From Nanobdellota archaeon (lineage in GTDB: Archaea > Nanobdellota > Nanobdellia > Pacearchaeales > GW2011-AR1), in the NCBI GenBank assembly GCA_038044205.1, contig JBBTAN010000017.1:30027-94026 (forward strand): a stretch of DNA of 64,000 bases. Direction: 5' to 3'. The first letter of the stretch is position 1. The number at the start of each line of letters is the position of its first letter. The position numbers were made by a program, and so were the translations under genes. The notes below the pieces were generated by a model. That model was not told the origin of the DNA and did not search any database. It was given only the letters and a program-made list of their open reading frames with translations. This document shows, in pieces, positions 1,974 through 64,000 of this stretch.

Positions 1974-2300
1974 ATGACTATGAAACTAGGAGAAATTTTT
2001 ATAATAGTAGCTATTGCAATGATACTTGGTTCTTTATTTTTCTCTTATATAAAAGAATTTAGAGATTCTGTTAAACCTCAATTAGGAAAACAAGTAATTG
2101 AATTGCCAAAAGAAAAACAGATAATATATGAAGAACAAGTAGATAATACAAATATTGGTTTCTTGATAAATATGGCAATAATCTGGTTGGTATTGGATAT
2201 GAAAAGAATTGGATTTATAAAAATATTATTGGAAAAACTTCTTTCGTTGCTTCTCATTTTACTTTGGAACAAAGAAAGAAAACATCATGAAACCAATTGA
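1974..2300 (+). CDS. membrane protein, family T
   Basis: N-terminal TM helix plus IKEFRDSVKPQ, shared with the 2287 gene. Confidence 0.55.
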   Translation: MTMKLGEIFIIVAIAMILGSLFFSYIKEFRDSVKPQLGKQVIELPKEKQIIYEEQVDNTNIGFLINMAIIWLVLDMKRIGFIKILLEKLLSLLLILLWNKERKHHETN

Positions 2301-2601
2301 ACTTGCAATTACTGTTTTTATTATTTCTATTGTTGGCTATATTTTTATTTCAGGTATAAAAGAATTCAGAGACTCTTTAAAACCTCAACCTGTTATAGAA
2401 AAACAAATCCAATCAAAGGAAAATATTCAAGTAAATTATAAAAAAGAAATAGCTAAATTAAATATTATTATTTTAGATATGGAACAAAAAATCAGAGACC
2501 TAGAAAAACTACACGTTGAACAAGAATCTTTTATTTCAGATACAAGGAATATAGAAAAAAGACTGCGACAACTAGAAAAAATTCATTGCGAAAAAGAATA
2601 G
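2287..2601 (+). CDS. membrane-anchored coiled-coil protein, family T
   Basis: TM helix plus IKEFRDSLKPQ; paralog of 1974. Confidence 0.6.
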   Translation: MKPIELAITVFIISIVGYIFISGIKEFRDSLKPQPVIEKQIQSKENIQVNYKKEIAKLNIIILDMEQKIRDLEKLHVEQESFISDTRNIEKRLRQLEKIHCEKE

Positions 2602-2605
2602 AATG

Positions 2606-2614
2606 TTGTATAAT
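2606..2614 (+). promoter_or_regulatory. TTGTATAAT -10-like element upstream of tRNA-Leu
   Basis: gTTGTATAATTAGTTt ends 12 nt before the tRNA 5' end; near-identical strings at 13456 and 47040. Confidence 0.5.
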
Positions 2615-2626
2615 TAGTTTAGAAAT

Positions 2627-2717
2627 GCGGTAGTAGCCGAGCGGCACAGGCAAGGCGCTTAAAACGCCTCGGAAGTAGCAATACTTCTTGTGAGTTCGAA
2701 TCTCACCTACCGCACCA
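2627..2717 (+). tRNA. trnL: tRNA-Leu (anticodon UAA), type II with long variable arm, CCA encoded
   Basis: acceptor gcggtag/ctaccgc; anticodon stem aggcg/cgcct with loop cTTAAaa; variable arm gaagta-gcaa-tacttc; T arm gtgag-ttcgaat-ctcac. Confidence 0.9.
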
Positions 2718-2746
2718 TTTCTTGTTTTTATTAAAGGAAATATAAA

Positions 2747-3532
2747 ATGATAACAAAAGATGAGTTAGTTCAATTATGGAATTCAGATATTACTGTAGTG
2801 AAAGTTAGAGAAAAGTTAGGGAGAATTTCAGAGAGACAATTGTATAAATACCTAAAATTGTACGACATCCCCAAAAGAAAAAGGGGAGGAGTTAGGAAAC
2901 AAACGACATATCCACAAACCATAGAATCTGCTTATGTTATGGGACTTGCTATTGGCGATGGAAATATTTCTAAATTAAAAAGAACTTTAAGACTTAGATT
3001 GTATTGCGATGAAAGATATAAAAAACTTATAGATAAATGGAAGTTATCTTGTGAAAATGTATTTCAAAGAAGAGTGTCTATATCAAATCATCATTGTGGC
3101 AAATGTAAAATCATATCTATACATACTAATGCTCTTTCTACTTTTCCTTGGGAACCAAATAAAGGACATAAATGGAAGCAAAAAGTAAAGATTCCAGATT
3201 GGATAATTGAAAACGAGGAATTTTTACATGCTTGTATGAGAGGTTTGTTTGAAACAGATGGTTGTTAGTATACACAGATAATAAAAACAAAAAATCATGA
3301 ATATTGTTATGAAAGAGCTAATTTTTGCAATTCGTCAAAAGAATTAATAAAACAGGTGATAAATTATCTTAAAAAATATGATATTCATTTTTGCGTATTC
3401 AAAAGAAAATATAGAAAAGGTATCATTAGAATTACTAGACAGAAATTTAAATCTACCTCAACAAATTATGCTATTGCTGTAAATGGATATGAAAAATTAA
3501 AAGAATTGACAGGATTTGTAAAGAAGGAATAA
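2747..3532 (+). pseudogene. LAGLIDADG homing endonuclease interrupted by an in-frame TAG at 3266-3268
   Basis: motifs MGLAIGDGN and RGLFETDGC; after the TAG the same frame stays open for 87 more codons (..FCNSSKELIKQVINYLKKYDIHF..), ending at TAA 3530. Confidence 0.75.
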
Positions 3533-3539
3533 AAAAAAT

Positions 3540-3670
3540 AACAGGTTGCAATGTAGATGACCGATATATTAGGTGGGAAATGGGCCGGAGCGTCATGTCC
3601 TCCGTTATTATCTCCTTAACCGAAAGCTGCCGCCCATGCTGAAGGCTTTCCTTTTACATTGCAACCTGTT
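3540..3670 (+). ncRNA. hairpin-closed GC-rich structured element U1
   Basis: perfect 16-bp closing stem aacaggttgcaatgta 3540-3555 / tacattgcaacctgtt 3655-3670 around a GC-rich core of about 100 nt. Confidence 0.45.
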
Positions 3671-3684
3671 TTTAATTAAAAAAT

Positions 3685-4241: not shown

Positions 4242-4619
4242 ATGAAAAATATAGAAAATAAATCCGTTATTGAGGAGATGAACTTTTATCCACGTAAAAT
4301 GAAATGTTTTAAATGTGGAATTACAATTGTTTTTTATGGAAATAAGAAGCCAAGTATTAGTTATGATGATTGGGATTTGAGGGATAATAAAGAAATATGT
4401 TATAGGTGTGCAACTACTAATTGTAGGTCAATAGATCCAATGAATATGAGTTTACTTCATTATGCTGCTTTAGAAAATAGATTAGAATCATGTAAATTTT
4501 TAATAAATAAAATAGATATAAATATATTAAATGATAGAAATGAAACACCATTAGATTTGGCGAAGGATAAAAAATTAATTTATTTTTTAGAAAGTAAGGG
4601 AGCAAAAAGGAGTAAGTAA
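4242..4619 (+). CDS. zinc-ribbon plus ankyrin-repeat protein, family F N-terminus
   Basis: FKCGITIVFYG..CYRCA Cys pairs; C-terminal LLHYAALENRLESCKFLINK..NETPLDLA ankyrin signature. Confidence 0.75.
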   Translation: MKNIENKSVIEEMNFYPRKMKCFKCGITIVFYGNKKPSISYDDWDLRDNKEICYRCATTNCRSIDPMNMSLLHYAALENRLESCKFLINKIDINILNDRNETPLDLAKDKKLIYFLESKGAKRSK

Positions 4620-4620
4620 A

Positions 4621-4884
4621 ATGAGAGAAGAAACTGTTGTTGAGACAAAAGCATGGAAACTTACTTGTAATGATTGTGGTAGGATAGAATTTTATTATGG
4701 AGATAAATTGCCTACTCATTTTTGGTTAGGATGGAATTTAGATGGAGGTGAACTTTGTTTTACCTGTGCATCAGTAGCAGGTAAACCAACTAACGCATCT
4801 CAGGAATTAGCTCAGAGAAAAGAGGATAAAAAGAATAAAAAAGGAGTAAGTAAACATGGAAAGACACACAAGACCACCTCTTAA
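4621..4884 (+). CDS. zinc-ribbon protein, family F
   Basis: CNDCGRIEFYYG..CFTCA parallels the N-terminus of 4242. Confidence 0.6.
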   Translation: MREETVVETKAWKLTCNDCGRIEFYYGDKLPTHFWLGWNLDGGELCFTCASVAGKPTNASQELAQRKEDKKNKKGVSKHGKTHKTTS

Positions 4885-5170
4885 AGCACCATTTTCAGTT
4901 GGAACTAAACTTAGATATATAGGAGATAGGAAAGTATCTTCTCTTATTGATGGAAAATATGTTCCTATTCTTTTTAATGGAATGGAAACTAAAATTATTT
5001 CCATTAGCCCTGGCTGGCAAGGAACGGGAATGATTATAGATGTAAATGATGAAACAGGTGAGGATATAATTGATTGCACTCATGATGATACTTCAGTATA
5101 TGAAACAGTAAATGGAGAGAAAAGATTGATTCACAATGAAAATAAAAAAGAATGGCAGGTAATAGAATGA
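4856..5170 (+). CDS. hypothetical protein, family E
   Basis: SD aaggagtaagtaaac; PPLKAPFSVGTKLRYIGDR..KKEWQVIE. Confidence 0.65.
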   Translation: MERHTRPPLKAPFSVGTKLRYIGDRKVSSLIDGKYVPILFNGMETKIISISPGWQGTGMIIDVNDETGEDIIDCTHDDTSVYETVNGEKRLIHNENKKEWQVIE

Positions 5171-5478
5171 AAAATACAAATCCACCATTAGAAGCTCCAT
5201 TTCCAGTTGGGACTAAATTAAAATATATTGGAGACAGGAGAAGTTGTGCTTTTATTAATGGAGAATATGTTCCTTGTATGTATAATGGCCTGGAAATAGA
5301 AATTATTTCCATTGACAAAGGAAGACATGGAACAGGACAAGTTCTTTTTGTAGATGAAGAAACAGGCGAAGAAGCATATTATAATACTGTAAATGGAAGC
5401 TCAGTATATGAAAATATAAAAGGTGAGAAGAGGTGTATTTTTCCTGAAAGTAAAAATGAATGGCAAGTAATAGAATAG
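5167..5478 (+). CDS. hypothetical protein, family E
   Basis: ATGA overlap with the 4856 stop; PPLEAPFPVGTKLKYIGDR..KNEWQVIE. Confidence 0.65.
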   Translation: MKNTNPPLEAPFPVGTKLKYIGDRRSCAFINGEYVPCMYNGLEIEIISIDKGRHGTGQVLFVDEETGEEAYYNTVNGSSVYENIKGEKRCIFPESKNEWQVIE

Positions 5479-5926: not shown

Positions 5927-6460
5927 ATGGAAATCATCAATATGTCAGTTGAGTTCAAAGTTATGGAAGAATTAAAAAATAAATTGTGTAGTATTAATAG
6001 TGATTTACATATTTCTTTCTATATAGATAGAAGAAAATCGACAGTTGGTTTAACTTTTGATGAAAAATGTATTGAATGGCAAATTGATGTTAAAGATAGA
6101 GAAAGATTTGTATTGAAAACATATTGTATATCTGAAAATATTATGAGAGGAATAAGAACCAATAGCGACAGTAAAAGATATCCAGATATTCATCCAGAAT
6201 CAGAAGATGTTACATCTGTTGTAAATGATATTCTTTTTATTATAAAAGAATATAATAAAAGTATTAGTGACATGCCAGAGAAGCAACGGAAATTTATAGA
6301 GGATGGAGCTAAGAAATGTCCTTATTGCGATAATTGGTTATTTCTTACTTCTTGTAATTTCCCTTCTATACGTTTTGGAACAGTTGAATTTTATGTTACA
6401 TGTAAATCTTGTAATAAAAATATAAATGTTATATATAAATTGGATCGTTTTGAGGAATAG
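5927..6460 (+). CDS. hypothetical protein with C-terminal zinc ribbon
   Basis: 177 aa, SD aaaggag; CPYCDN..CKSCNK. Confidence 0.65.
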   Translation: MEIINMSVEFKVMEELKNKLCSINSDLHISFYIDRRKSTVGLTFDEKCIEWQIDVKDRERFVLKTYCISENIMRGIRTNSDSKRYPDIHPESEDVTSVVNDILFIIKEYNKSISDMPEKQRKFIEDGAKKCPYCDNWLFLTSCNFPSIRFGTVEFYVTCKSCNKNINVIYKLDRFEE

Positions 6461-6509: not shown

Positions 6510-6586
6510 GAGGGCGTAGCTCAGTTGGCTAGAACAAAAAGCTTTTAACTTTTAGGCCGTGAGTTCGAGCCTCACCGCTCTCACCA
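6510..6586 (+). tRNA. trnK: tRNA-Lys (anticodon UUU), CCA encoded
   Basis: acceptor gagggcg/cgctctc; anticodon stem aaaag/ctttt with loop cTTTTaa; T arm gtgag-ttcgagc-ctcac; one C-A mismatch in the D stem. Confidence 0.85.
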
Positions 6587-6621: not shown

Positions 6622-7200
6622 TTGACTCACATTCCTATTGTAATTGAAAAGACTAAAGGCGGAGAACGCGGCTATGATATTTATAGCCGTTTACTCAAAG
6701 ATAGTATTATTTTTATTGGTGATTCAATTGATGATAATTTAGCTAATTCTGTTATTGCGCAAATGTTATTTCTCAGCCTAGAGAAAAAAGAAAAAGAAAT
6801 ATCTATTTATATTAATAGTCCAGGTGGTAATGTTACTTCAGGCATGGCTATATATGATACTATGCGTTATATTTCTAATCCTATTGCGACTTTCTGTCTT
6901 GGACAATGCGCCAGCATGGCTGCTGTTCTTTTAGCGGCTGGAGATAAAGGAAGACGGTTCTCTCTTCCTAATTCAAGAATTATGATTCATCAACCTTGGG
7001 GCGGGGCGTCGGGAAGCGCGTCTGATATTAGAATCCAAGCTAATGAAATTGAACGTCTAAAAAAATCAATTAATAAAATATTAGTAGATCATTCTGGTAA
7101 ACCTATTGAGACTGTAGAAAAAGATACAGATAGGGATTTTTTTATGAGTCCAAAAGAAGCTATTGAATATGGTTTAATTGATACTGTTCTTGGAGAATAA
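6622..7200 (+). CDS. clpP: ATP-dependent Clp protease proteolytic subunit ClpP
   Basis: TTG start after SD aaaggagag; [35 protein letters not shown] (Ser), MIHQPWGG (His), EAIEYGLID; the track ORF start lies inside the tRNA. Confidence 0.9.
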
Positions 7201-8457: not shown

Positions 8458-9012
8458 ATGAAATATTTTTTTGTTATTGATACTGAACAATATGCTGGAA
8501 ATTTTCAAAGAGAGATGGCTGCTTATATTACAGGAAGATGGGATTTTGAAACTCATGGGGAAAAAGAAGCTGATGCATTTATTAAAGAAGAAGGAGAAGA
8601 GACTTCCAGAAAATTTGATGAGACTATTATAGGTATAAATGATGATGAACATGGATGGTTTGTTGCTGCGCTTATTGCTACTCCAGGTTGGTTTAACAAT
8701 GGTCTAGGAGGCGAGTTTAGGGACGGTCAAGATAAAGAGGCAGAAAAACACTACAATAAAGAATCAAAGAGATGGGAAGGTAAGTATGGAGATAAAGCGG
8801 AAAAATATAATGGGCAAAAATATCCTTCATATCAAAGTATTGGAGTTGTATTCAGCAAGAAACCAACTGATAAAATGATAGAAACTATGAAACGTAGGGC
8901 TAAAGATTATGCTAAAAATTATAAAGATTGTATTGGTAGAAAACAAAAAATAAATATTACTAATTTTAGGCTAGTTACAGAAAAAATTATTAAAAAAGAA
9001 ATTTATATTTAG
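8458..9012 (+). CDS. hypothetical protein
   Basis: ATG 8458 after SD aaaaggagtaaaaat; MKYFFVIDTEQYAGNF.. Confidence 0.65.
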   Translation: MKYFFVIDTEQYAGNFQREMAAYITGRWDFETHGEKEADAFIKEEGEETSRKFDETIIGINDDEHGWFVAALIATPGWFNNGLGGEFRDGQDKEAEKHYNKESKRWEGKYGDKAEKYNGQKYPSYQSIGVVFSKKPTDKMIETMKRRAKDYAKNYKDCIGRKQKINITNFRLVTEKIIKKEIYI

Positions 9013-9024
9013 GAGTAAAAGAAA

Positions 9025-9354
9025 ATGAAAACAGAAACAGATTTTCCTGAAAATATTACTATTGGCGATAAATATGGACCTGCTATGAAAATAACTGATC
9101 AGGATGAAGCTAATATTTATTTTGAGAAGTGTGTTCGTCATCAAATGTGGTTTAATAAATCTAGAGATGAAGCAGTAAGTATTGAGAAACAGAACCTTGG
9201 TTATTTTTCTGGTTATTATGATTCTGAAACTATGGAAAGGGTGCAGAAATTATTTAATTGTTCTCATCCGGTTTTTGGTAAAGTAACAGCAGGTAATCCT
9301 CCTACACCTGAAGAAGCATTTAATGCTGGCGTAAAAATTGGAAAGAAAAAATAA
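9025..9354 (+). CDS. hypothetical protein
   Basis: 109 aa, SD aggag. Confidence 0.65.
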   Translation: MKTETDFPENITIGDKYGPAMKITDQDEANIYFEKCVRHQMWFNKSRDEAVSIEKQNLGYFSGYYDSETMERVQKLFNCSHPVFGKVTAGNPPTPEEAFNAGVKIGKKK

Positions 9355-9366
9355 AAAGAGGAAGAA

Positions 9367-9762
9367 ATGAAAAATGATTCTTCAGTTGAAACAGTTTTTG
9401 AATGCCAGAGATGTAAAGGAACATTTAAAACTAGAGAGGCTTTTAATAAACACCTAAATATTAAATTAAAAGTAGGAGATCTTACTTCCTGTGATGGACT
9501 AGAACTATTTATTATTGAAAGAATAGATGATTGCAAGATAATTGCTAAATTATTTTCTCTAGATGCAGAACTAAAAGAAGATGCTGAAGTATTTGAATTT
9601 GAACATGATCAATTAACTAAAGCAACAAATTGCGAAATTAAAACGGCTATTGAAGAAGCTATTGAAACTATTAAAGATAAAGAATTCACTATAAAAGAAT
9701 TTAAAAATGATATTAATTTTATAAAGAAACAAATTAAATATTTGAAAGCAAGGGGTAAGTAA
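9367..9762 (+). CDS. hypothetical protein, N-terminal CxxC motif
   Basis: 131 aa with SD; FECQRCKGTFKTREAFNKH. Confidence 0.6.
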   Translation: MKNDSSVETVFECQRCKGTFKTREAFNKHLNIKLKVGDLTSCDGLELFIIERIDDCKIIAKLFSLDAELKEDAEVFEFEHDQLTKATNCEIKTAIEEAIETIKDKEFTIKEFKNDINFIKKQIKYLKARGK

Positions 9763-10197
9763 ATGTATAAAAGCGATTCTCCATATTATAAAGTATTGGA
9801 ACTAGCTGGAGCAACTATTAAAAGGTTCGGAGAATTCGGTTCCTATCAAGGTGAATGGTGGGCTGAAGTAATATATAAAGATAAACGTGGTTGGGTAAAT
9901 GGTTTTTATGGATCCTGTACTGGTTGTGATGCACTATTAGCTGAATTTGGTAGAGCCGATCATAACTGTAATGGAGAGGAATACTATGATCCTATTTATA
10001 AAATGAATTTCAGAGAAAATTGCAAAACATGTCAAAATATAAAAAAGAGATTAATTGAATTGGGAGAAAAATACTTAGAAAATATTATGTCTAAAGCAGA
10101 TGCAATCACTCTAGCAAGAAAAAATTCAGATTGGGATGTTGAAGCAGATAAAATGGTTGATTTTATTAAAAATAAACAAAAAGGAATTAAAAAATGA
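9763..10197 (+). CDS. hypothetical Cys-rich protein
   Basis: 144 aa; GSCTGCD and CKTCQ motifs. Confidence 0.65.
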   Translation: MYKSDSPYYKVLELAGATIKRFGEFGSYQGEWWAEVIYKDKRGWVNGFYGSCTGCDALLAEFGRADHNCNGEEYYDPIYKMNFRENCKTCQNIKKRLIELGEKYLENIMSKADAITLARKNSDWDVEADKMVDFIKNKQKGIKK

Positions 10198-12043: not shown

Positions 12044-12322
12044 ATGGACAACAAAAACAAAGAAATTACAGATGAAACAGAAATGTTACTAATAAGAGTA
12101 GAAAATGGAAAAGTACACGTAAGTCGTTCTTCTTTTTCCCATCCTATACATATACTTGTTGCTGATTATGATAATCCTAATGATGAAGATATTATCCAAG
12201 AATCAAAATCTTTCTATTTTCCATTAGAAGAAAAGTGTTTAGTTCAACATGTCTGGGAAAGTGTATTAATGCCTAAAGATACAGAAGAATTAAGAAAAAC
12301 TTTTTTCACTAAAAATAAATAA
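12044..12322 (+). CDS. hypothetical protein, family G
   Basis: GKVHVSRSSFSHPIHILVADYDNP..LMPKDTEELRKTFFTKN, shared with the C-terminal half of 12498. Confidence 0.65.
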   Translation: MDNKNKEITDETEMLLIRVENGKVHVSRSSFSHPIHILVADYDNPNDEDIIQESKSFYFPLEEKCLVQHVWESVLMPKDTEELRKTFFTKNK

Positions 12323-12497: not shown

Positions 12498-13193
12498 ATG
12501 AAAATCGAATATTATGATTGCATAAATACTATACTCAATTACATAAAAGAAAATATTAAATCTATTTATTATGAGAAACCTATCCGATGCCAATTATTAA
12601 ATCAGAATGATGGAATTTCTAAAGGATTCTCTTTAGATTTTGAAAATGAAAATGTGATTATTTATTGTTATGAAAACCTCTATCCTGAAAAAAGTTTTAA
12701 AATTATTTATGAAATAAAACATGAAATGCCAGAAACAAATATTATTTATGGATTTTCTATGGAATCTTGTAAAAATACAGCTAATGCTATTGTTAATTAT
12801 ATAGAAAATTTCCTAGGTCTTGAAAAATCACAAATACATCCTATTCATCCAGACTATGAAATGAATAATGGAATAGAAATGCTAGTCATTGTGTTTAGTA
12901 ATGGGAAAGTCCAAGGTATAAATCGTTCCAATTTTTCCTATCCTATACATATTTTAGTTGCCGATTATGATAACCCTTATAACGAAAATCGGAAACTAGG
13001 ATCAAAAACATGTTGCATATCAGGATTACAATGTCTAGTTAGACCTGTTTGGGAAGGTTCATTAATGCCTAAAAATACAGAAAAATTAAGAAAAACTTTT
13101 TTCACTAAAAAAGAGCGTATCCTAACTGACGAAGAAAAAGAAGCAATTTATTATCATAACCATCCTGGTGAAATTAATAATGGACCATTTTAA
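12498..13193 (+). CDS. hypothetical protein, family G C-terminal domain
   Basis: 231 aa; GKVQGINRSNFSYPIHILVADYDNP..LMPKNTEKLRKTFFTKK. Confidence 0.7.
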   Translation: MKIEYYDCINTILNYIKENIKSIYYEKPIRCQLLNQNDGISKGFSLDFENENVIIYCYENLYPEKSFKIIYEIKHEMPETNIIYGFSMESCKNTANAIVNYIENFLGLEKSQIHPIHPDYEMNNGIEMLVIVFSNGKVQGINRSNFSYPIHILVADYDNPYNENRKLGSKTCCISGLQCLVRPVWEGSLMPKNTEKLRKTFFTKKERILTDEEKEAIYYHNHPGEINNGPF

Positions 13194-13477: not shown

Positions 13478-13556
13478 GGGCCTGTAGCTCAATTGGTTTT
13501 AGAGCATCGGACTCATAATCCGGGGGTTCCAGGATCATGCCCTGGCAGGCCCACCA
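13478..13556 (+). tRNA. trnM: tRNA-Met-type (anticodon CAU; Ile2 not excluded) with atypical T-loop, CCA encoded
   Basis: perfect acceptor gggcctg/caggccc; D stem gctc/gagc; anticodon loop cTCATaa; T stem ccagg/cctgg but T loop atcatgc lacks TTC. Confidence 0.8.
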
Positions 13557-13662: not shown

Positions 13663-14325
13663 ATGAAAGAACAGGAAAAGATTAAAGCTATTGAGTTGAG
13701 AAAACAAGGGTTATCAGTCAATAAAATAGCAAAAGAAGTTGGTGCTTCAAAAGGAACTGTCAGTGTATGGGTTAGAGATATTCAATTAACAAAAGAACAA
13801 AAGATTCAATTAGCTAAAAATAGAAATCCAGGTTATTCAGGATTTAGCACAAAAGAAATATTAGCAGAAGAAAAAGAAAAAAGAATAGAATCACAAAACA
13901 AAGGGAGAGAAATAGTAAAAAGTTGTGAAGAAGGATATAGGTATGGATGTATGTTATACTGGACAAAAGGTGAAAAAAATAAAAATTGTGTTGTATTCTC
14001 GAATACAGATGTAAATATAATGATTCTATTTATTAATTTTTTGAGAAAATATTTTAACTGCAATAATAAAGATTTTTCTATTTCTGTAACCGCTAATGTC
14101 AATAGTGAATATTCTTCTTCAGATATAGAAAATTTTTGGATCCAGAACCTTGGTATTGAAAAAGAATGTTTAAAAAAATCAACATTCAAGAAAAACGATA
14201 AAGAAAATAATGAATATCCTTATGGGAAATGTCGTATAGCTCTAAATAATACAGATGTAATTCAGCAGATTTATGGCTCTATTCAAGAAATTGGTGGATT
14301 CGTCCAGGAAGAATGGCTATATTGA
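13663..14325 (+). CDS. HTH plus LAGLIDADG-like homing-endonuclease-like protein, family H
   Basis: IELRKQGLSVNKIAKEVGASKGTVSVWV (HTH); CMLYWTKGEKNKN..FINFLRKYF..FW resembles a single-motif LAGLIDADG-type domain from memory. Confidence 0.5.
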   Translation: MKEQEKIKAIELRKQGLSVNKIAKEVGASKGTVSVWVRDIQLTKEQKIQLAKNRNPGYSGFSTKEILAEEKEKRIESQNKGREIVKSCEEGYRYGCMLYWTKGEKNKNCVVFSNTDVNIMILFINFLRKYFNCNNKDFSISVTANVNSEYSSSDIENFWIQNLGIEKECLKKSTFKKNDKENNEYPYGKCRIALNNTDVIQQIYGSIQEIGGFVQEEWLY

Positions 14326-14432: not shown

Positions 14433-15143
14433 ATGAAAAAAGAAGAAAAAGCCAAAGCTATTGAATTACGCAAGCAAGGGTTTTCATTGCGTACAATATC
14501 AAAACAACTAGGCGCATGTAGAAGTAGTGTAAGTTATTGGGTTAGAAATGTTTTATTAACAGATGCTCAAAAAACACAATTGATAGCTAATAAAAATAAT
14601 AGTGGATATTTAGGATTTGGAGCAAGAGTTGTAGCTGCTAAAGCTAAAGAAAAAAGGATGGAGTATCAAAATATAGGAATAGAAAAAGCTAGTAATTGCG
14701 ATATAGAATATTCAATGGGATGTATGTTGTATTGGGCCGAAGGTAGTAAAAATAAAAATGCTGTAATATTTACAAACACAGATGTTGATATGATGGTATT
14801 TTTTGTGAATTTTATGAGAAAATATTTCAATTGTAATAATGAAGACTTTGCAGTATCTATAAATACTTATTTAGATAATGGCTACACTGAAATTGAAGTG
14901 GAAAATTTTTGGATGGAAAAATTTAAACTTGACAGAACTTGTTTAAGAAAATCAATTTTTAGAAAAGGTGATGGGACAGGTAAATATCCTTATGGAACAT
15001 GTAGAATAAGTATAGGTAGCACAAAAATAGTTCAACAGATATATGGTTCTATACAAAAATTAATTGGTTTTAAAAGGGAATTGTGGTTAAATGGTAGCAG
15101 GGGTTGGAAAGGCCAAAATAAAAATTTAGAATCAATCAAATAA
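14433..15143 (+). CDS. HTH plus LAGLIDADG-like homing-endonuclease-like protein, family H
   Basis: paralog of 13663: IELRKQGFSLRTISKQLGACRSSVSYWV, CMLYWAEGSKNKN, FVNFMRKYF. Confidence 0.5.
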   Translation: MKKEEKAKAIELRKQGFSLRTISKQLGACRSSVSYWVRNVLLTDAQKTQLIANKNNSGYLGFGARVVAAKAKEKRMEYQNIGIEKASNCDIEYSMGCMLYWAEGSKNKNAVIFTNTDVDMMVFFVNFMRKYFNCNNEDFAVSINTYLDNGYTEIEVENFWMEKFKLDRTCLRKSIFRKGDGTGKYPYGTCRISIGSTKIVQQIYGSIQKLIGFKRELWLNGSRGWKGQNKNLESIK

Positions 15144-45225: not shown

Positions 45226-45228
45226 AAA

Positions 45229-45375: not shown

Positions 45376-45387
45376 GGAGTAAATCAA

Positions 45388-48405: not shown

Positions 48406-48453
48406 AGATATAATGATACTGTGGTTTATTCTGAAAAATAAAAGGAGAAAAAA

Positions 48454-51761: not shown

Positions 51762-52970
51762 ATGTCTTCTTCTCTTATTGTTCCTGTCTGTCGCATTAAA
51801 AATAATAGAGAGCATCCTAATGCTTCCCTATTGGGTATTTGTGATGTCCTCGGATATCAAATGGTCGTCCCGCTCAAAGAGGCTCCTGATGGTCCTATTG
51901 CACGTTATTTTAAAAAGAATATGGTAGATGATAAGGGTAAGAAGATTCCAACTAATCAAGATGATCCTGAAGCTGAAGTTATTAATTTGGATTTTATGTA
52001 CCCAGAAGATAAATTAGTTGTATATTTCCCTTTCGACACTATTCTTTCTTCTGAATGGGCTTGTAAATTTGGTGTTCAATCTCTTCTCAAAGGTGCTAAT
52101 AATGATAGAGTAGGAAAGATTAAACTTAGAGGCGAACCAAGTTTTGGACTTGTTGTTGATATTCCTGAAGGTGTTGACTGGCAAGAAGGAACTAATGTTG
52201 CTGATTACTATGGCGCTATTAAATATGAACCGCCAGTTAGACAAATTTGTGGTGATGCTCATTATGCGGACCCTGATATTGATCCTTTCTTTGAAAAATT
52301 TACTGATGTTCAGAATGGTAGAATTTATACTGATATTTTTGAAGACGGTGAAGAAATCATTGCTACAGAAAAGTTGCATGGGTGCAACGGAAAAGTAGCG
52401 CTTATAAATAATAATTATGTTGCTGGTTCAATGAATCATAGAAGGAAGCGTCCAGTTAGGATGGAAGGTGAAAATGTTATTGAATGTTCTTTTGATGATA
52501 AGGAAATGAAAGAAAATATATATTGGTTTCCTTGGACTGTTTCTACTGTTAGGACAATGATGGAAAGTATAAAAAATATGGGGAATATTGTTCTTTATGG
52601 TGAGATTTATGGAGGGAGTATACAGAGTCTTACTTATGGAATTCCAAAAGGTAAAGGATTAGGATTCAGGGCTTTCGGACTAACAGTAAATGGTAAGTAT
52701 ATGGACTGGGACGATTTTGAATCAACTTGTAAAAAATATGGAGTTGATATTGTTCCTGTTATTTATAGGGGGCCATTTAGCATGGCTATTGCTAAACAAC
52801 ATGCTAATGGAAAAACTACTCTTACTAAAGATGGACAAATTAGAGAAGGAGTAGTTTGCTATCCAGTAAAAGAAAGAACAAATTCAAGGATTGGTAGATG
52901 TATACTGAAATATATTTCGGATGAATATTTACTTTCCAAACATCAAGATAATGACACAAAGGATATTTAA
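51762..52970 (+). CDS. ATP-dependent RNA ligase with N-terminal OB-like domain (Rnl5/DraRnl-like architecture)
   Basis: N-terminal VCRIKNNREHPNASLLGICDVLGYQMVV; motif I TEKLHGCNG (KxHG); later YGEIYGGSIQ, REGVVCYPV and ILKYIS in ligase motif order. Confidence 0.75.
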   Translation: MSSSLIVPVCRIKNNREHPNASLLGICDVLGYQMVVPLKEAPDGPIARYFKKNMVDDKGKKIPTNQDDPEAEVINLDFMYPEDKLVVYFPFDTILSSEWACKFGVQSLLKGANNDRVGKIKLRGEPSFGLVVDIPEGVDWQEGTNVADYYGAIKYEPPVRQICGDAHYADPDIDPFFEKFTDVQNGRIYTDIFEDGEEIIATEKLHGCNGKVALINNNYVAGSMNHRRKRPVRMEGENVIECSFDDKEMKENIYWFPWTVSTVRTMMESIKNMGNIVLYGEIYGGSIQSLTYGIPKGKGLGFRAFGLTVNGKYMDWDDFESTCKKYGVDIVPVIYRGPFSMAIAKQHANGKTTLTKDGQIREGVVCYPVKERTNSRIGRCILKYISDEYLLSKHQDNDTKDI

Positions 52971-55239: not shown

Positions 55240-55525
55240 CTATTGTGGCAAAATTATGGTTAAAGGTGCAGATGAAAAAATGATTGGTGATATTTTTTCT
55301 AATTTGAAAAATTATATTACTTCCATCAATATGAATGAAACTAAATTTGGATTATATTTTTATGCTAATAAGTTCTCTACGGAATTTGATAAAAAACAAT
55401 TGTCTGAACTTCTTTATTGTAGAATCAATAGTATCAATGGAAAACCCTGCGATATTGAATTTTTTATTTCTCATAGTATTACAGATAGGTTTTATTTTCC
55501 TCTCCCTCAAAAGAAAGAAAAATGA
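55205..55525 (+). CDS. small protein, family D (5 of 6), apparently starting on the motif-1 ATG
   Basis: the homologous N-terminal strand LYRVSIIY (compare HYRVSVRII in 55809) lies upstream of the internal ATGs 55256 and 55280; NGKPCDIEFFISH. Confidence 0.55.
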   Translation: MPGKSLYRVSIIYCGKIMVKGADEKMIGDIFSNLKNYITSINMNETKFGLYFYANKFSTEFDKKQLSELLYCRINSINGKPCDIEFFISHSITDRFYFPLPQKKEK

Positions 55526-55794
55526 AAATGAAAAAGAAATTGTATTTGTATAAAATTTGGATGGATGGTGATGCTGGTTGGGACGAATATGATTCTGCTG
55601 TTGTTTGCGCTGAAAATGTAGGTGAAGCTAAAAGAATTCATCCTGGCGGTTATCCTTTTAATAGGCGCACTGACAAGTGGGAACATAATTATGGTTGGAC
55701 AACTGATCCTAATGATGTCCAAGTTCAGTATATTGGAGTTGCAAATAAAGATATGGAACCAGGTGTTGTAGTTGCTTCTTTTAATGCCGGTTAA
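55522..55794 (+). CDS. hypothetical protein, family A
   Basis: YDSAVVCAENVGEAKRIHPGG..VQVQYIGVANKDMEPGVVVASF. Confidence 0.65.
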   Translation: MKMKKKLYLYKIWMDGDAGWDEYDSAVVCAENVGEAKRIHPGGYPFNRRTDKWEHNYGWTTDPNDVQVQYIGVANKDMEPGVVVASFNAG

Positions 55795-56325: not shown

Positions 56326-56568
56326 ATGAAAGGGATTTCTGCTGAAAAGAAAAAGAAATATATAAAATCAACTGGTGGTTTTTGTATTTATTGTGGAAAG
56401 AAAAAGTTGGTGGTTGGTCCAATTTATTTTTATAGTTATGGAATTTTTAGAACAGTTATTTGTAGTTCTTGTAAAAAATTGTGGGAAGATAAATTTATTT
56501 TATCCAATGTTGTTGATTTGGTGGAAGATGAAAAGAAAGTAAGTAAAAAACAAAAAAGGAGTAAGTAA
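56326..56568 (+). CDS. zinc-ribbon protein, family N
   Basis: CIYCGK..CSSCKKLWEDKFILSNV. Confidence 0.6.
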   Translation: MKGISAEKKKKYIKSTGGFCIYCGKKKLVVGPIYFYSYGIFRTVICSSCKKLWEDKFILSNVVDLVEDEKKVSKKQKRSK

Positions 56569-59051: not shown

Positions 59052-59336
59052 ATGAATAATAATTATATTATTAGACTGAAAGATCTTTACAATGAAACTG
59101 TAGTGGCTATTGCAAAGAAATGTATGAATACTACTGATAATGTTTTCCCTGAAGTGCGAAACTATATTGGAGGTTCTAAAATGACAGCATTGGTAGTTCT
59201 TGCTTGTTGTATGAATAATAATTACTCTGATGTTTATGATGATATTGATCGTGCTATCTATTCTATGTCCACTGATGTAATGCAATCTATAGCCAATTGT
59301 TATTCTAATTCTATTGTTTGTTTTGGAAAGGAGTAA
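59052..59336 (+). CDS. hypothetical protein, family R
   Basis: LKDLYNETVVAIAKKCM..MTALVVLACCMNNN. Confidence 0.6.
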   Translation: MNNNYIIRLKDLYNETVVAIAKKCMNTTDNVFPEVRNYIGGSKMTALVVLACCMNNNYSDVYDDIDRAIYSMSTDVMQSIANCYSNSIVCFGKE

Positions 59337-59340: not shown

Positions 59341-59613
59341 ATGAATAATACAACTATCCGAGAACTAAAAGAACTTTATATTCTTGAGGTTGAAAGAATT
59401 GCGAATAAATGTTTATATAAATACGATATTCCACAAGAGGTAAAAGAATATATTGATTCTCCATTGACAGCTTTAGTTGTTATTCTTTGTACAGATAGTG
59501 ATTATTGGAGAAAAAATAATGATGCAGTTAATGCTATGTGTTCTGATGTAATGAAATGTATGTCTAATAATTTATCTGAATCTGTTCTTTGTTTTGAATA
59601 TAGCGAAGAATAA
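59341..59613 (+). CDS. hypothetical protein, family R
   Basis: LKELYILEVERIANKCL..LTALVVILCTDSD. Confidence 0.6.
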   Translation: MNNTTIRELKELYILEVERIANKCLYKYDIPQEVKEYIDSPLTALVVILCTDSDYWRKNNDAVNAMCSDVMKCMSNNLSESVLCFEYSEE

Positions 59614-59630: not shown

Positions 59631-59942
59631 ATGAAAAAGAATAAGTTGAATTTGTATAGACTTTGGGTTGATGAAAAAGATTATTATCCTGGTTTTTTTG
59701 ATTTTTGTGGGAAATATGAATCTGTTATTGTTTGTGCGAAGAATGAAAAGGAAGCTAAATTAATTACCCCTACTAAAGAAGATCAAAAATTACAAGATGA
59801 TGGAACATGGTTTTATGATCATGGATGGGTCACATCTCCAGATAAAGTTCATATCCAACATATTGGAGTTGCTAATGAAAATATAAAACCAGGTATTGTA
59901 GTTGCTTCTCTTGTTGGAGAAAGTGATATATATCCAGATTGA
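59631..59942 (+). CDS. hypothetical protein, family A
   Basis: YESVIVCAKNEKEAKLITP..VHIQHIGVANENIKPGIVVASL. Confidence 0.65.
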   Translation: MKKNKLNLYRLWVDEKDYYPGFFDFCGKYESVIVCAKNEKEAKLITPTKEDQKLQDDGTWFYDHGWVTSPDKVHIQHIGVANENIKPGIVVASLVGESDIYPD

Positions 59943-59964: not shown

Positions 59965-60256
59965 ATGACAGATAAAGAAAAAGAAATTATTGATTCAGTA
60001 ACAATTAATTTTTATAGTTCTATAAAACATAAATATTGTTTAGATATAGAAAATATTGCTAAAAGTCTTCCGCCAAGCGATAGAGCAATACAATGCACGA
60101 AATATAGATAAATCATCTATTATTTCTCTTTTTATTCTTGCTTGTAGTAACAATAGAAAAGATTATGGAAGTGGTAATTTTAGATATGATATTTCTGATA
60201 TAGCTTTTGATACTATGTATGGGGACATTCTAAAAAAGGAGAAAGAAAATGAGTGA
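59965..60256 (+). pseudogene. family R paralog split by a frameshift
   Basis: the N-terminal part from ATG 59965 (..CLDIENIAKSL..) stops at 60111; the homologous remainder AIEQYNARNIDKSSIISLFILACSNN.. is in the +1 frame. Confidence 0.55.
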
Positions 60257-60527
60257 TGATGAAATGAGTGATGTTAAACCTGATTCCTTTTATGTTAATG
60301 GAAATATTGATGATATGAGGACTATTTATTTGAAGGATTTGGCAGAAATTGTAAAGAAAAGCCTTAATACTCCAATTCAGAATGTTGTAGAGGATTATAT
60401 TTATTCTCCATTTATGGCTTTATTTGTTATTGTTTGTAGCGAAACCAAAGATTATAGTAAAAATAATGTTGTTGAGGTTGCTCGCAATATTATTTATGAA
60501 GATGTGAAAAATTGGATAACCGAATAA
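60249..60527 (+). CDS. hypothetical protein, family R
   Basis: IYLKDLAEIVKKSL..FMALFVIVCSETKD. Confidence 0.6.
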   Translation: MSDDEMSDVKPDSFYVNGNIDDMRTIYLKDLAEIVKKSLNTPIQNVVEDYIYSPFMALFVIVCSETKDYSKNNVVEVARNIIYEDVKNWITE

Positions 60528-60751: not shown

Positions 60752-61279
60752 ATGACAAGTGTTGATCTTTGTCCAAGGATATATGTTGCTTCTCTTGCTG
60801 ATTACAATAATGGTAATCTTCATGGAATTTGGATTGATCTTGATGAAAATACTGATGTTGATGAAGTTTTTGAGAAGATTAATAAAATGCTAAGTGAATC
60901 TAAATATCCTGTTGCAGAAGAGTTTGCTATACATGATTATGATGATTTTGGAGGTATGGAAATTAATGAAAATGAATCAATTGAAAATGTAGTTGAAATG
61001 GCTAATTATCTTACTAAACATGGTGAAGCCTTTGCTCTTTGGTCTAATAATGTTGGGTTTGAAGGAGCTAAAGATAATTTTGAAGAGGCTTATGTTGGAC
61101 ATTATGATTCTAAAAAGCAATATGCTGAACAGTTTGCTGATGATATTTATTCAGCAAAGGATTTGGGAGAATTAGCTATTTATATTGATTGGGAAAAGTA
61201 TGCTGATGATTTGTTTAGTAATGATTATTGCGATATAGAAGGTAATAGATCTGGTATTTATGTCTTTCGTAACATCTAA
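60752..61279 (+). CDS. ardA: ArdA antirestriction protein (DNA mimic, anti type I R-M)
   Basis: CPRIYVASLADYNNGNLHGIWIDLDENTDVDEV..VAEEFAIHDYDDFGG..YIDWEKYADDLF..IYVF matches the ArdA family signature closely; highly acidic. Confidence 0.9.
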   Translation: MTSVDLCPRIYVASLADYNNGNLHGIWIDLDENTDVDEVFEKINKMLSESKYPVAEEFAIHDYDDFGGMEINENESIENVVEMANYLTKHGEAFALWSNNVGFEGAKDNFEEAYVGHYDSKKQYAEQFADDIYSAKDLGELAIYIDWEKYADDLFSNDYCDIEGNRSGIYVFRNI

Positions 61280-61674: not shown

Positions 61675-62091
61675 ATGAATAGAATTTCTGTTCCCGATAC
61701 TAATGTTAATATTGAATCAGAAACAATAGAGGCTTATTCTATTGTAACTAATCTTGGTCCTGATTTTGTTAAGAAGAGGTTGGATGAGACAAATGAAACT
61801 ATTAATGAATGGCAAAATAAACAAAAATATCATATTAAATGTATTAAAATAAATATAATTGTTGGTCTTATTGCTACTGGTTTGGCTTATCTATCCTATT
61901 ATTGGGCGCAAGATATTTGGATTACTATTGCTTTCTTTATTTTTGCCTGCCCTATGTCTATTTATTTTATTATTACAGATTATTATTTATATAAAATACT
62001 TGAGAATGGGATAAAAGTTCAGGCTGAATATAAAGACAAATGGTTGTATTATGATAGAATAATTAATAATTATATAACCAAGAGAAACTAA
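61675..62091 (+). CDS. two-TM membrane protein
   Basis: 138 aa; IIVGLIATGLAYLSYYW and ITIAFFIFACPMSIYFIIT. Confidence 0.65.
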   Translation: MNRISVPDTNVNIESETIEAYSIVTNLGPDFVKKRLDETNETINEWQNKQKYHIKCIKINIIVGLIATGLAYLSYYWAQDIWITIAFFIFACPMSIYFIITDYYLYKILENGIKVQAEYKDKWLYYDRIINNYITKRN

Positions 62092-62102
62092 AGGAGTAAA
62101 AA

Positions 62103-62444
62103 ATGGAGCAAGTCAATAAAGAAATTTTGGGAATGTGGAAGAATAAGGCTTTTCAAGTAATTGATTCTTTTTCTAAAATGGGAGATGATAGTTCAAATAG
62201 AAAAAGTTTTAGAGGAAAACTTGGTATTATCAAATCAAGACTTCAAGATATAGTAAATGGTAATTCTCGTGATGATAATAATGATTCTATGGAAATTCTA
62301 TCTGATCTACTTATTGACACTTCATGGGGACTATCTGAACCTATACACCTTGCTTTCTTTTTGTTTATAGGAATGAATGTTAGTCCAAAAACATTTATTA
62401 GTTATTGCCGAGCTATTAAAAATAATATTTATTCAATGAAATAA
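62103..62444 (+). CDS. hypothetical protein
   Basis: 113 aa with SD. Confidence 0.6.
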   Translation: MEQVNKEILGMWKNKAFQVIDSFSKMGDDSSNRKSFRGKLGIIKSRLQDIVNGNSRDDNNDSMEILSDLLIDTSWGLSEPIHLAFFLFIGMNVSPKTFISYCRAIKNNIYSMK

Positions 62445-62453
62445 GGAGTTACA

Positions 62454-62771
62454 ATGTATATTGCAAGCGTCAAATCACCTTGTGGACTTGGTAATTTTTC
62501 TATTAGTGGAGATGAAAAAGGTATTGCTAGAGCTATATATTATTTTCTTGGTTTTCTTATTGAGGAAAAGGAATTAGAACCCCATGTTATTACTATAGCT
62601 GATGGAGAAGGAAATTATTTTGAAGTGCGTTCTGAAAATAATTTGTCTAGGATAACTAAAGATATATCTACATATTTTGATGGACATGGAAGGGAAATAA
62701 CAAAAGAAGAATATTTTAAATATATGGAAAATGAAAATTTGTTCGTCATTCAAAGAATAAGGAGTAGATAA
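62454..62771 (+). CDS. hypothetical protein, family S
   Basis: GDEKGIARAIYYFLGFLIEEKELEPHVITIADGEGNYFE. Confidence 0.6.
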   Translation: MYIASVKSPCGLGNFSISGDEKGIARAIYYFLGFLIEEKELEPHVITIADGEGNYFEVRSENNLSRITKDISTYFDGHGREITKEEYFKYMENENLFVIQRIRSR

Positions 62772-62965
62772 TGGAACATGAATATAAAGAAATTAGGCAA
62801 ATGTGGGCAAGAAAAGAGAATGGTGAATTTATTAAACATGCAGATTGTAGAATTAGAACTTGGTCACATTCTTATAGTATTAGCATTGCCTTTCCTAATG
62901 AAATTGTAATTCCTATTCCTGTTGAAGTTACTACCATAATTAAAGAAACAAGAAGAAAGGAATAA
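62771..62965 (+). CDS. hypothetical small protein
   Basis: 64 aa, ATGA-type overlap. Confidence 0.55.
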   Translation: MEHEYKEIRQMWARKENGEFIKHADCRIRTWSHSYSISIAFPNEIVIPIPVEVTTIIKETRRKE

Positions 62966-62969
62966 TTTA

Positions 62970-63293
62970 ATGCTTATGTTGAAAGTGGAAAACTACTTTG
63001 ATGAAGAAATTGTTATTTGTGGAGATGAGTATGCAGTAGCAAAAAGTTTTTATTTTATTGCTTTGGGGATGAAAGAGAAAGATAGATTCCCTATGAAAGT
63101 TACTATAACTGACAATAAGGGGTATTATTACGAAGCTCTTATGACAGAAGAATTAGATGATAAAGGTACTTTACAATTTACACTATACGTAGTTGATGAA
63201 GATGGTCCTATTTATTATGGAAAGTCAGGAGAAAAGATTACGGAAGAACAATATGAAACTAATGAGTATGGATACGAAAAGGAGCAAAAATAA
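62970..63293 (+). CDS. hypothetical protein, family S
   Basis: GDEYAVAKSFYFIALGMKEKDRFPMKVTITDNKGYYYE. Confidence 0.6.
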   Translation: MLMLKVENYFDEEIVICGDEYAVAKSFYFIALGMKEKDRFPMKVTITDNKGYYYEALMTEELDDKGTLQFTLYVVDEDGPIYYGKSGEKITEEQYETNEYGYEKEQK

Positions 63294-63626
63294 ATGTCTT
63301 TTATGGAAAAGCAAGTTGAATATGGAACTTGGATTGAAGTTAATACTAACTGCGGTATTTCTTTTTTCCCGGCCGATCTACTCGATAATAAAGATATTAT
63401 TTATCTGAAAAACAATCCTGATGTTGATGATATTCCTAATCAACTAATAGATAAGATAAAGCAATATATTGAAGGTAATGAAATCTGGACTGTTGAAGTT
63501 ACTGATGGTTATGGCGCTAGGCTTTCCGCACCAGGTTATATGGATTGCACGGAATGGTCTGTCTTTGAGACAGAACAAGAAGCTATTGATTACATTGACG
63601 AATTTTATGGAGATGATGAAGAATAG
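63294..63626 (+). CDS. hypothetical acidic protein
   Basis: 110 aa with SD. Confidence 0.6.
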   Translation: MSFMEKQVEYGTWIEVNTNCGISFFPADLLDNKDIIYLKNNPDVDDIPNQLIDKIKQYIEGNEIWTVEVTDGYGARLSAPGYMDCTEWSVFETEQEAIDYIDEFYGDDEE

Positions 63627-63777
63627 ATAAAAATTTATTTAAATTTTGAATATCGGAATTTTGTTATGGTGATATAGTTAAGGTTGAAGTTAAAGCTCAA
63701 ATTGAACCGTTGAATAAAGAAATTATTGGTCTTAAAAATAGAATCGAAAAACTGGAAAAGAATAAGGAGTAAGTGAA

Positions 63778-64000
63778 ATGGGATACTGCGTTACTTGTGA
63801 TTGCAACGTTACTATTAATTCCGATAATATTAAGAATGTTCTTTCTATTATCAACAAAACTAATGGTGGTTTTTATAGAGATGACAATGAACCTTTTACT
63901 TCTATTATTAAAGCATTTTCCGTATGGGGATATTTGGCAGACATTGATGAAAATATGAATATTATCATTAATGAAAGAAATGCTGAAAAATGGATAGATG
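63778..64000 (+). CDS. family O paralog, partial at the window edge
   Basis: ATG 63778 after SD aaggagtaagtgaa; IIKAFSVWGYLADIDENMNIIINERNAEKW parallels IEEAFNTWGYDCFIEENGN.. of 33205; preferred over track ORF 63773. Confidence 0.55.
   Translation, partial: MGYCVTCDCNVTINSDNIKNVLSIINKTNGGFYRDDNEPFTSIIKAFSVWGYLADIDENMNIIINERNAEKWID

Follow-up and report, generated by a model that had tools for sequence, protein, structure and literature searches.

Twenty small, mostly tandem gene families and their likely origin by old local duplication in a putative huge-phage accessory block

Introduction

Why should one stretch of groundwater DNA carry so many small genes that resemble their neighbours, and to what kind of element does such a stretch belong? 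These questions are raised by a window of 64,000 nucleotides (positions 30,027 to 94,026 of contig JBBTAN010000017.1, assembly GCA_038044205.1) that is filed under a Nanobdellota archaeon. A sequence-only reading had placed roughly 60 of its about 175 genes in about 23 small families and had described this paralogy as extreme, mostly tandem, old and diversifying, typical of host-takeover or anti-defence arsenals. In the analysis reported here, 20 of the families are supported, and their best explanation, which is considered likely, is a series of old local tandem duplications followed by divergence and decay in a huge-phage accessory block.

The window corresponds to bases 154415-218414, reversed, of a 499,814-bp contig in the European Nucleotide Archive (Hain_H43_01um_R3_3_length_499814_cov_8), which comes from the 0.1-um fraction of Hainich groundwater, well H43. 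The DNA surveyed consists of the window together with 10 kb on each side (84 kb). The supported families keep their original letters, A to T, and all of their members lie on the plus strand.

Support for the families

The families were called by single-linkage clustering of BLASTP matches, iteration of hidden Markov model (HMM) profiles, a six-frame search, and Smith-Waterman alignment with shuffles. Against the possibility that most of the proposed pairs lack significant similarity, the all-against-all BLASTP comparison returned 37 pairs at an expectation value (E) below 1e-3, compared with 0-1 in ten composition-preserving shuffled sets. Single-linkage clustering of this comparison yielded the 20 families, which contain 57 of the 178 genes (32%), and the best profile E-values within families reach 1e-159. 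Profile iteration recovered all six genes of family D and the third gene of family P, and both of the decayed remnants proposed earlier, one of family A at 36239 and one of family C at 46608, were confirmed by HMM. The by-eye list proved highly accurate, with 20 of its 23 families supported by BLASTP and profiles; family U is unsupported, and W and V are borderline.

Genes of one family stand side by side 22 times, whereas random placement gives 0.7 such pairs on average and 5 at most, and 15 of the 20 families have adjacent members, which bears out their description as mostly tandem. Members of a family share 18-72% of their residues pairwise, the median being 32%, and for 78% of the pairs the identity falls between 25 and 50%, the interval that had been given as usual. 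A comparison of all 190 family pairs by hhalign found no inter-family link (best probability, 10.6%); therefore, the 20 families stand for 20 independent duplication histories.

Gene calls and extent of the block

The window has a GC content of 29% and a strongly positive GC skew throughout. A simple call of open reading frames (ORFs) gives approximately 177-179 ORFs on the plus strand, with a median length of 94 amino acids (aa) and 90% of the DNA coding, and the gene calls of the assembly itself match the start coordinates used in the earlier reading. Genes as short and as AT-rich as these could deceive in two ways: by chance or low-complexity similarity, as weak scores may be raised by the low GC content and the compositional bias, or by fragmentation of longer genes at a recoded stop codon, a habit known from huge phages. 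All three stop codons end genes (TAA 124, TGA 31, and TAG 22), reading through any of them leads to the next stop within 4-8 codons, of 176 adjacent gene pairs, 54 are in the same frame, which is the random rate, and a Shine-Dalgarno-like motif precedes 124 of 177 starts (70%), compared with 93 of the 890 in-frame ATGs inside genes. Fragmentation by stop-codon recoding is therefore excluded, and together with the near-empty shuffled sets these counts refute an artefact of either kind, the probability of which is negligible.

The block, in which tiny genes are densely packed and all run in one direction, spans at least 78 kb. Its start, approximately 4.5 kb before the first window position, is marked by a change from minus-strand to plus-strand genes, and the block extends at least 10 kb past the window end. 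Paralogy persists downstream, where a paralog of gene 7204 (equivalent to window position 65610-65891), a fifth copy of family R (equivalent to 69271-69630), and a new three-member tandem family (equivalent to 71703-73504) were found; in the upstream flank of 10 kb, where most genes are on the minus strand, no paralogs were found. Two further sequencing runs yielded contigs that match the window at 100% identity over 11.3 kb and 7.6 kb, and copy number, sequence, and gene order are the same in the three independent assemblies.

Age, selection, and decay of the copies

According to the proposed explanation, a gene-sized unit would have been duplicated locally, mostly in tandem, in each of the families. 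The copies would then have diverged deeply while retaining their fold, and some would have decayed, so that the process would be one of birth and death and not of recent amplification. Some of the families would exist in this lineage only, and others, single-copy in phages elsewhere, would have been expanded here. The products may be dispensable, host-directed accessory proteins, for which counter-defence is one possible role, and duplication may let one scaffold diversify its binding specificity.

The closest pair of the window is that of family B, and its members share only 72% of their protein residues and 78-81% of their DNA; thus, there are no recent amplifications. In the five least-diverged pairs (families B, H, Q, G, and E), the ratio of nonsynonymous to synonymous substitution rates (dN/dS), estimated by the Nei-Gojobori method (NG86), is 0.32-0.55, which indicates that both copies of each pair are kept under purifying selection. 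The remaining pairs have dS values of approximately 0.5-1.6, near saturation and with biased codon usage, which leaves their ratios uninformative. The description of the duplications as old is supported by the identities of 18-72%, by the near-saturated synonymous sites, and by the presence of decayed copies; the description of the families as diversifying holds in the loose sense of wide sequence divergence, and within-family dN/dS speaks for constraint in the five closest pairs and is uninformative in the others.

Four copies have decayed, namely the remnants of families A and C and the frameshifted third copies of families O and R, and they fit a birth-and-death process. In addition, members of different families are intermingled: an A gene stands directly before a B gene at 41638/41896, a C gene, a B gene, and the C remnant follow one another at 45849/46110/46590, and another A gene is found within the D array. 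These mixed neighbourhoods and the dispersed members of several families point to later rearrangement.

Comparison with other large viruses

How far the window departs from other huge phages was assessed against 15 control windows of 50 kb, for which Bacillus phage G and three uncultured huge phages (484-735 kb) served as sources. Window and controls went through the same crude procedure, in which ORFs were picked greedily in six frames and compared by BLASTP at E<1e-3 with the database size fixed. The fraction of ORFs that belong to families has a median of 9% and a range of 0-28% in the controls and is 24-27% in this window. The number of families per 50 kb has a control median of 3 and a range of 0-5, compared with 15-16 here, and the controls reach at most 8.9 families per 100 ORFs, compared with approximately 11.5 here. 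The window is unusual by its number of independent families, not by its fraction of paralogous genes, and the high family count partly reflects the very high gene density. The word extreme was therefore too strong: the paralog fraction lies near the upper end of the range of huge phages but still within it, and only the number of families is approximately threefold higher.

Lineage-specific expansion of this kind is already known from jumbo phages. For instance, Bacillus phage G has a lineage-specific expansion of zinc-ribbon proteins of approximately 35 copies (Iyer et al. 2021, PMC7824862). The likeness lies in a huge, low-GC, phage-type genome in which small proteins have multiplied within the lineage, with zinc ribbons represented here by families F, L, and N; the difference is that there are 20 families of 2-6 members here, instead of one or a few large ones.

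Multigene families are also found in large eukaryotic DNA viruses, such as the multigene families (MGF) of African swine fever virus and the paralogs of Mimivirus. Those of poxviruses show birth-and-death dynamics (PMC9973261; bioRxiv 10.64898/2026.09.02.748683). They share with the present families the tandem arrangement of diverged accessory genes and the occurrence of decayed copies, and there, they are associated with host interaction; however, they belong to another host domain and virus lineage, and the families described here are much smaller. Poxviruses are also the source of the genomic accordion, in which near-identical copies vary in number between populations (PMC9973261, PMC6115191). 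An accordion resembles the present case in that gene-sized units are duplicated in tandem in a large DNA virus, but it was rejected as a description of this window, where the highest identity is that of the family B pair and copy number is constant in three assemblies.

Comparable in gene style are the host-takeover module of phage SPO1 and the early regions of T4 and T5, blocks of a few kb to approximately 20 kb with few paralogs. In both cases, one-directional, packed genes for proteins of less than 100 aa have strong ribosome-binding sites, mostly lack homologues, and enclose anti-restriction genes. In contrast, the block described here is at least 78 kb long and has a third of its genes in families. 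The features of a tandem expansion are found in it: significant similarity, clustering, decayed copies and, for families A, C, D, and Q, lineage specificity; family H is widespread.

Nature of the element

The genes with recognizable relatives are few, and several of them point to bacteriophages. A full-length ClpP of the bacterial type (6622-7200, plus strand; TIGR00493, 9.7e-88) shares 58% identity with ClpP of Staphylococcus and is encoded among tiny ORFans directly after a tRNA-Lys gene; it has the appearance of a host-derived protein, not of a prohead protease. A single-copy homologue of the anti-restriction protein ArdA (60752-61279, plus strand) matches Pfam PF07275 and a PHROG anti-restriction family (1.4e-34) and is named accordingly at NCBI, and with a net charge of -26 in 175 aa, it combines the domain with the acidity of a DNA mimic. 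An RNA ligase (Rnl2/DRB0094-like; 51762-52970, plus strand; Pfam 1.2e-25 and NCBIfam) has its best relatives in huge phages, at approximately 27% identity, and a DUF932 protein belongs to the phage/plasmid-like family TIGR03299.

Four tRNA genes were predicted, Leu-TAA (2627-2717), Lys-TTT (6510-6586), Met-CAT (13478-13556), and Ile-TAT (15152-15223), all in the first quarter of the block and reading A/T-ending codons or AUG; three are supported by Rfam, and Ile-TAT falls below the Rfam threshold. The organization is of the phage type, with one-directional tiny ORFans interspersed with tRNAs and with PHROG families represented by A, Q, O, and ArdA, and the 84 kb hold almost no housekeeping genes. 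From ClpP, ArdA, TIGR03299/DUF932, the phage homologues of families A and Q, the relatives of the RNA ligase, and the scarcity of housekeeping genes, we infer that the element is of the bacteriophage type, and the sequence is probably a huge-phage contig that was binned into an archaeal metagenome-assembled genome (MAG). Searches for closer relatives returned nothing by megablast against phages, with the RNA ligase and the DUF932 protein against IMG/VR, or with the RNA ligase against GTDB representatives.

A variable genomic island of a cell (DPANN/Nanoarchaeota), or a giant mobile element of an archaeon, would account for the NCBI protein names, which read 'MAG: ... [Nanoarchaeota archaeon]' (MEK6832632, MEK6832699, and MEK6832724; locus tags AABY32_01370 and following). 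It would also suit the low GC and the lack of any virion gene in the 84 kb. The 0.1-um groundwater fraction, moreover, is rich in DPANN and candidate phyla radiation (CPR) organisms (PMC12960796). Such an origin is nevertheless highly improbable in view of the bacterial-type ClpP, the ArdA and DUF932 proteins and a prepilin-type N-terminus, the huge-phage relatives of the RNA ligase, homologues of families A and Q that were found, within the phage collection, only in bacteriophages, and a gene content of almost no housekeeping functions with a median protein of 94 aa.

The prepilin-type N-terminus belongs to a 128-aa protein (18429-18815) that carries a cleavage/methylation motif (a weak match to Pfam N_methyl) and is a predicted bacterial type IV pilin-like feature within the phage block. 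A match to NCBIfam IV_pilin_GFxxxE (4.9e-7), for which the scan names no protein, is probably due to the same gene.

Homologues and folds of the family proteins

Few of the small proteins resemble anything described. A scan of 150 proteins against PHROGs matched 29 PHROG families at 1e-5, which, as the output counts matches per family and not per protein, corresponds to an estimate of roughly a dozen proteins. They comprise ClpP, ArdA, the RNA ligase, the DUF932 protein, ankyrin proteins, and families A and Q. Only approximately 10% of the window proteins have any PHROG match. Among ten larger singletons, PADLOC gave one helix-turn-helix (HTH) match only. Lineage specificity was checked in four of the 20 families (A, C, D, and Q). 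The profile of family C, searched against 5.8 billion protein clusters, found its own six members only, and that of family D, searched against 1.84 billion representatives, found its own six and one weak outsider; judged by such searches, several families exist only in this lineage. Family A occurs at one place per record in 32 phage records and family Q at one place per record in 437, from which both appear to be single-copy in other phages and expanded here.

AlphaFold2 models of families C and D, built from the six-paralog alignments alone, reached a predicted local distance difference test (pLDDT) score of 92 and 91, respectively, which speaks for the small genes as sources of genuine folded products. 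The family D model has a ferredoxin-like beta-alpha-beta-beta-alpha-beta fold. Its best structural match, which is not significant, is a phage S-adenosylmethionine (SAM) lyase (6zm9; E=0.012, TM 0.55), followed by PII, ACT, and MJ1052; the Foldseek matches of the model are generic ferredoxin-like folds at E>=0.003, and in BFVD, only uncharacterized phage proteins were matched. The family C model (43730-43975) has a beta-beta-alpha-alpha-beta-beta arrangement for which Foldseek found no match in the PDB, the best being de novo designed Top7 proteins at E 0.42. The model may represent either a new small fold or an idealized prediction. It is conceivable, although unlikely, that families C and D are new proteins that arose de novo, or diverged beyond recognition, within the phage lineage and then multiplied there, as in a gene nursery.

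Other families can be characterized from their sequences. Families F, L, and N have paired CxxC zinc-ribbon motifs, T and Q consist of membrane proteins, and B, K, and S are strongly acidic. Relative to the ArdA homologue (-0.15 per residue), the proteins at 63294-63626 (-20 in 110 aa), 38954-39145, 41896-42363 and 46110-46583 (the two members of family B; -19 in 155 aa for the first), and 25616-25837 (the third member of family K, -11 in 73 aa) are equally or more acidic, and by their charge, the proteins at 63294, of family B, the third of family K, and others are candidate DNA mimics.

Family H and mobile genes

Family H is unlike the other families. Its tandem pair (13663-14325 and 14433-15143; E=2e-86) is flanked by the tRNA-Met and tRNA-Ile genes, and its proteins combine an N-terminal HTH_23 domain with a C-terminal domain that bears the conserved motif GCMLYWAEGSK. 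More than 597 outside homologues with 38-55% identity are spread across metagenomes, and one of them is a solitary copy on a bacterial-like contig of 516 kb, where housekeeping genes surround it. In 40 homologues, the E of the motif is nearly invariant and the G is invariant. Family H is probably a widespread, mobile HTH gene. A LAGLIDADG enzyme was considered on account of the resemblance of this motif and rejected, as neither Pfam, at E<=1, nor a profile search against PDB sequences gave a LAGLIDADG match.

Could the families be, in the main, selfish mobile genes of a homing-endonuclease-like or insertion-sequence-like kind that copied themselves within the genome? Family H, with its HTH_23 domain, weak transposase-type N-terminal matches, hundreds of scattered homologues, position beside tRNA genes, and conserved LAGLIDADG-like motif, would suit such an origin, as would a TnpB gene just outside the window. 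The latter encodes 360 aa (OrfB_IS605 and a Cas12f1-like TNB domain) on the minus strand at 8744-9826 of the 10-kb upstream flank, approximately 175 bp ahead of the first gene in the window. The idea applies to family H only, however: the LAGLIDADG reading has no Pfam or PDB profile support, the other 19 families encode proteins of 60-160 aa with no nuclease or transposase signal, and families C and D are essentially without homologues elsewhere. As a general account of the families, it is improbable.

Anti-defence and the weight of the evidence

The arrays had been likened to an anti-defence or host-takeover arsenal, that is, to sets of inhibitors diversified against variants of host immune systems. 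The surroundings fit such an arsenal, consisting of ArdA, RNA ligase, DUF932 and ankyrin proteins, tRNAs, acidic proteins, and tiny ORFans, and the RNA ligase and the four tRNAs could counter RNA-targeting defences. In several products the acidity equals that of DNA mimics, family D has kept its fold while most of its residues diverged, and its nearest, non-significant structural neighbour is an anti-restriction enzyme. On the other hand, the recognizable counter-defence genes are single-copy and not paralogous, the structural matches of family D are generic, no evidence of positive selection was obtained from the five pairs in which dN/dS is informative, and the paralog families themselves match no anti-defence or defence model of Pfam, PHROGs, NCBIfam, or PADLOC. 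An arsenal is a serious possibility, but it is held to be the less probable account of the arrays.

For the preferred explanation, old duplication and decay in a huge-phage accessory block, there are likewise observations on the other side. The NCBI record gives a 'Nanoarchaeota archaeon' MAG, with a contig of 249,079 bp, and neither a capsid nor a terminase nor a portal gene was found in the DNA surveyed. The 20 paralog families, compared with Pfam, PHROGs, NCBIfam, and PADLOC, returned no anti-defence, defence, or host-takeover match, family H resembles a selfish mobile gene more than an accessory effector, and the control set was small (15 windows from four genomes). All of these weigh against it.

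Family members along the window

The following E-values are from BLASTP unless an HMM is named. Near the window start, family T forms a tandem pair (1974-2300 and 2287-2601; E=1.5e-7) of predicted membrane proteins with an N-terminal hydrophobic segment. Family F follows as a tandem pair with two CxxC motifs (4242-4619 and 4621-4884; E=1.3e-6), of which gene 4242 also gives a weak ankyrin (Ank) signal, and then family E (4856-5170 and 5167-5478; E=5e-40), a tandem pair with 55% protein identity, 70% DNA identity over 300 nucleotides, and a dN/dS of 0.55. Family N has dispersed members: a zinc ribbon at 30673-30888 (E=1e-12 against 56326), its BLASTP partner at 56326-56568, and, gained beyond the earlier list, gene 5927-6460 (HMM E=1.2e-23, residues 117-183), in which the homology is confined to a C-terminal zinc-ribbon domain.

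Family G consists of a short partial copy (12044-12322), aligned to HMM positions 101-206, and a full copy (12498-13193; E=5e-27), with a dN/dS of 0.46 for the pair. Family I is a tandem pair (16998-17360 and 17371-17703; E=4e-13) with a dispersed third member at 48263-48469 (HMM E=8.5e-18) that had been missed. Family J (24547-24918 and 24934-25239; E=7e-19) is also a tandem pair, and directly after it stands the tandem triplet of family K (25242, 25417, and 25616, ending at 25837; E=3e-10, 1e-5, and 2e-4, and HMM), with acidic proteins of 60-73 aa. The zinc ribbons of family L are dispersed (26731-27021, with weak zinc-ribbon Pfam matches, and 31348-31635; E=1e-13 between them), and the genes of family M overlap in tandem (30133-30405 and 30402-30680; E=2e-11).

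Family O begins with a tandem pair (32771-33190 and 33205-33588; E=1e-15; phrog_38862, 1.8e-7). A third, frameshifted copy follows as two pieces (33592-33714 and 33669-33995; HMM E=2e-29 for the C-terminal segment); the assembly annotation calls no gene there, and the region (33592-33998) is a probable pseudogene. The fourth copy (63778-64000) crosses the window end, measures 124 aa in full, and is supported by a full-length HMM match (E=2.4e-24) and a Smith-Waterman score of 97 against 33205 (p<5e-4). The tandem triplet of family P (39317, 39614, and 39886, ending at 40125) gives weak pairwise values (E=8e-4 and 2e-3) and is united by an HMM.

Family A has three members, at 41638-41880 (E=5.5e-14 and 3e-9; phrog_5444), 55522-55794 (E=1e-19 against 59631), and 59631-59942 (BLASTP). 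Its remnant (36156-36316; HMM match 36185-36316, E=1.4e-7) is chimeric: a canonical ribosome-binding site at 36142 and an ATG at 36156 lead into an unrelated 29-aa ORF, MGTRSITVIEEDGEALVSIYRQMDGYPMK, and the C-terminal third of family A lies downstream of it in another reading frame. The two members of family B (41896-42363 and 46110-46583; E=1e-74) have a dN/dS of 0.38. Family C comprises two tandem pairs (43730-43975 with 43987-44238, and 50565-50813 with 50835-51071) and a single gene at 45849-46091, all found by BLASTP and HMM, as well as the remnant at 46590-46814, which keeps the C-terminal two thirds (HMM match 46590-46811, E=1.3e-14). Family Q is a tandem pair of small membrane proteins with transmembrane segments (49927-50380; E=2e-17; phrog_1374).

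The six genes of family D (53996, 54288, 54604, 54903, 55205, and 55809, ending at 56099), united by HMM iteration, have only four invariant columns in their alignment, and the A gene at 55522 sits between the fifth and the sixth. Family R has a tandem pair (59052-59336 and 59341-59613; E=8e-13), a frameshifted third copy (59965-60111 and 60050-60253; HMM E=3e-27 for the C-terminal segment), and a fourth (60249-60527; BLASTP), and the two copies of family S (62454-62771 and 62970-63293; E=1.2e-7) are separated by one gene.

Of the remaining proposals, family W (45070 and 45388, within 45070-45582) is borderline, with only a 19-aa motif in common (E=1e-3, shuffle p<5e-4), and family V (22487-22741 and 26127-26336) is weak (E=0.019, shuffle p of approximately 1e-3). 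Family U (18815 and 28649) was rejected, as its similarity covers 25 N-terminal residues only, with a p of approximately 5e-3 before correction for multiple tests.

Regulatory motifs

Two recurrent motifs accompany the genes. The first, GATGCCCGGAA, occurs nine times with at most one mismatch (at 11001, 11809, 20403, 29106, 31874, 39242, 45771, 49099, and 55204), against 0.22 expected, always on the plus strand and mostly between genes, and it is absent from both 10-kb flanks. A T-rich run with CCC or CCCT at its end usually stands before the motif, and TATTAT(A) follows exactly 19 nucleotides after it in five of the nine copies and in degenerate form in the other four. The ATG within the motif opens short ORFs beginning with MPG, and the copy at 55204 coincides with the start of the family D gene 55205. 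In IMG/VR, one chance match only was found for it, and a sigma-70 promoter scan of the window gave no enrichment over shuffles. By its form, the motif resembles a promoter specific to the phage, which a sigma factor of the phage's own may recognize, and a sigma factor encoded in the window would fit it.

A batch scan of 150 proteins against NCBIfam gave one match to MzaA, of the sigma-70 family (E=4.2e-12). The protein behind this match was not located, as 50 proteins scanned singly did not reproduce it.

The second motif, AAGGAGTAAGTAA(A)ATG, marks highly uniform translation-start regions at 33 sites, against 0.25 expected, again on the plus strand only (for instance, at 4607, 25603, 31334, 50551, 56556, and 59039). 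In several cases, it spans the stop codon of the upstream gene, as at 4607-4619, which ends at the TAA of gene 4242-4619, and this position across stop codons suggests translational coupling. Its use as microhomology for unequal crossing over was also considered and rejected, as 12 of the 33 sites (36%) precede family genes against a baseline of 32%, which is no enrichment.

Two strong intergenic hairpins, at 35191-35234 (18 pairs) and 28491-28519 (13 pairs), are each followed by a T-rich tail on the plus strand and look like intrinsic terminators of the bacterial type.

Implications

The analysis shows that a public 'Nanoarchaeota' MAG probably contains a huge-phage contig. It also provides approximately 20 small families, with 2-6 natural variants of each scaffold, as a panel for the screening of host interaction and counter-defence. 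At least two of the families are predicted with confidence to fold into compact domains and have essentially no relatives elsewhere, and such orphan families with confident predicted folds are the most interesting by-product of the work. If families C and D did originate and multiply within the phage lineage, the accessory blocks of huge phages would be a birthplace and an amplifier of new protein folds. With regard to the growth of huge-phage genomes, the families of this window suggest that it can proceed via many small, independent duplications and not via a few big expansions.

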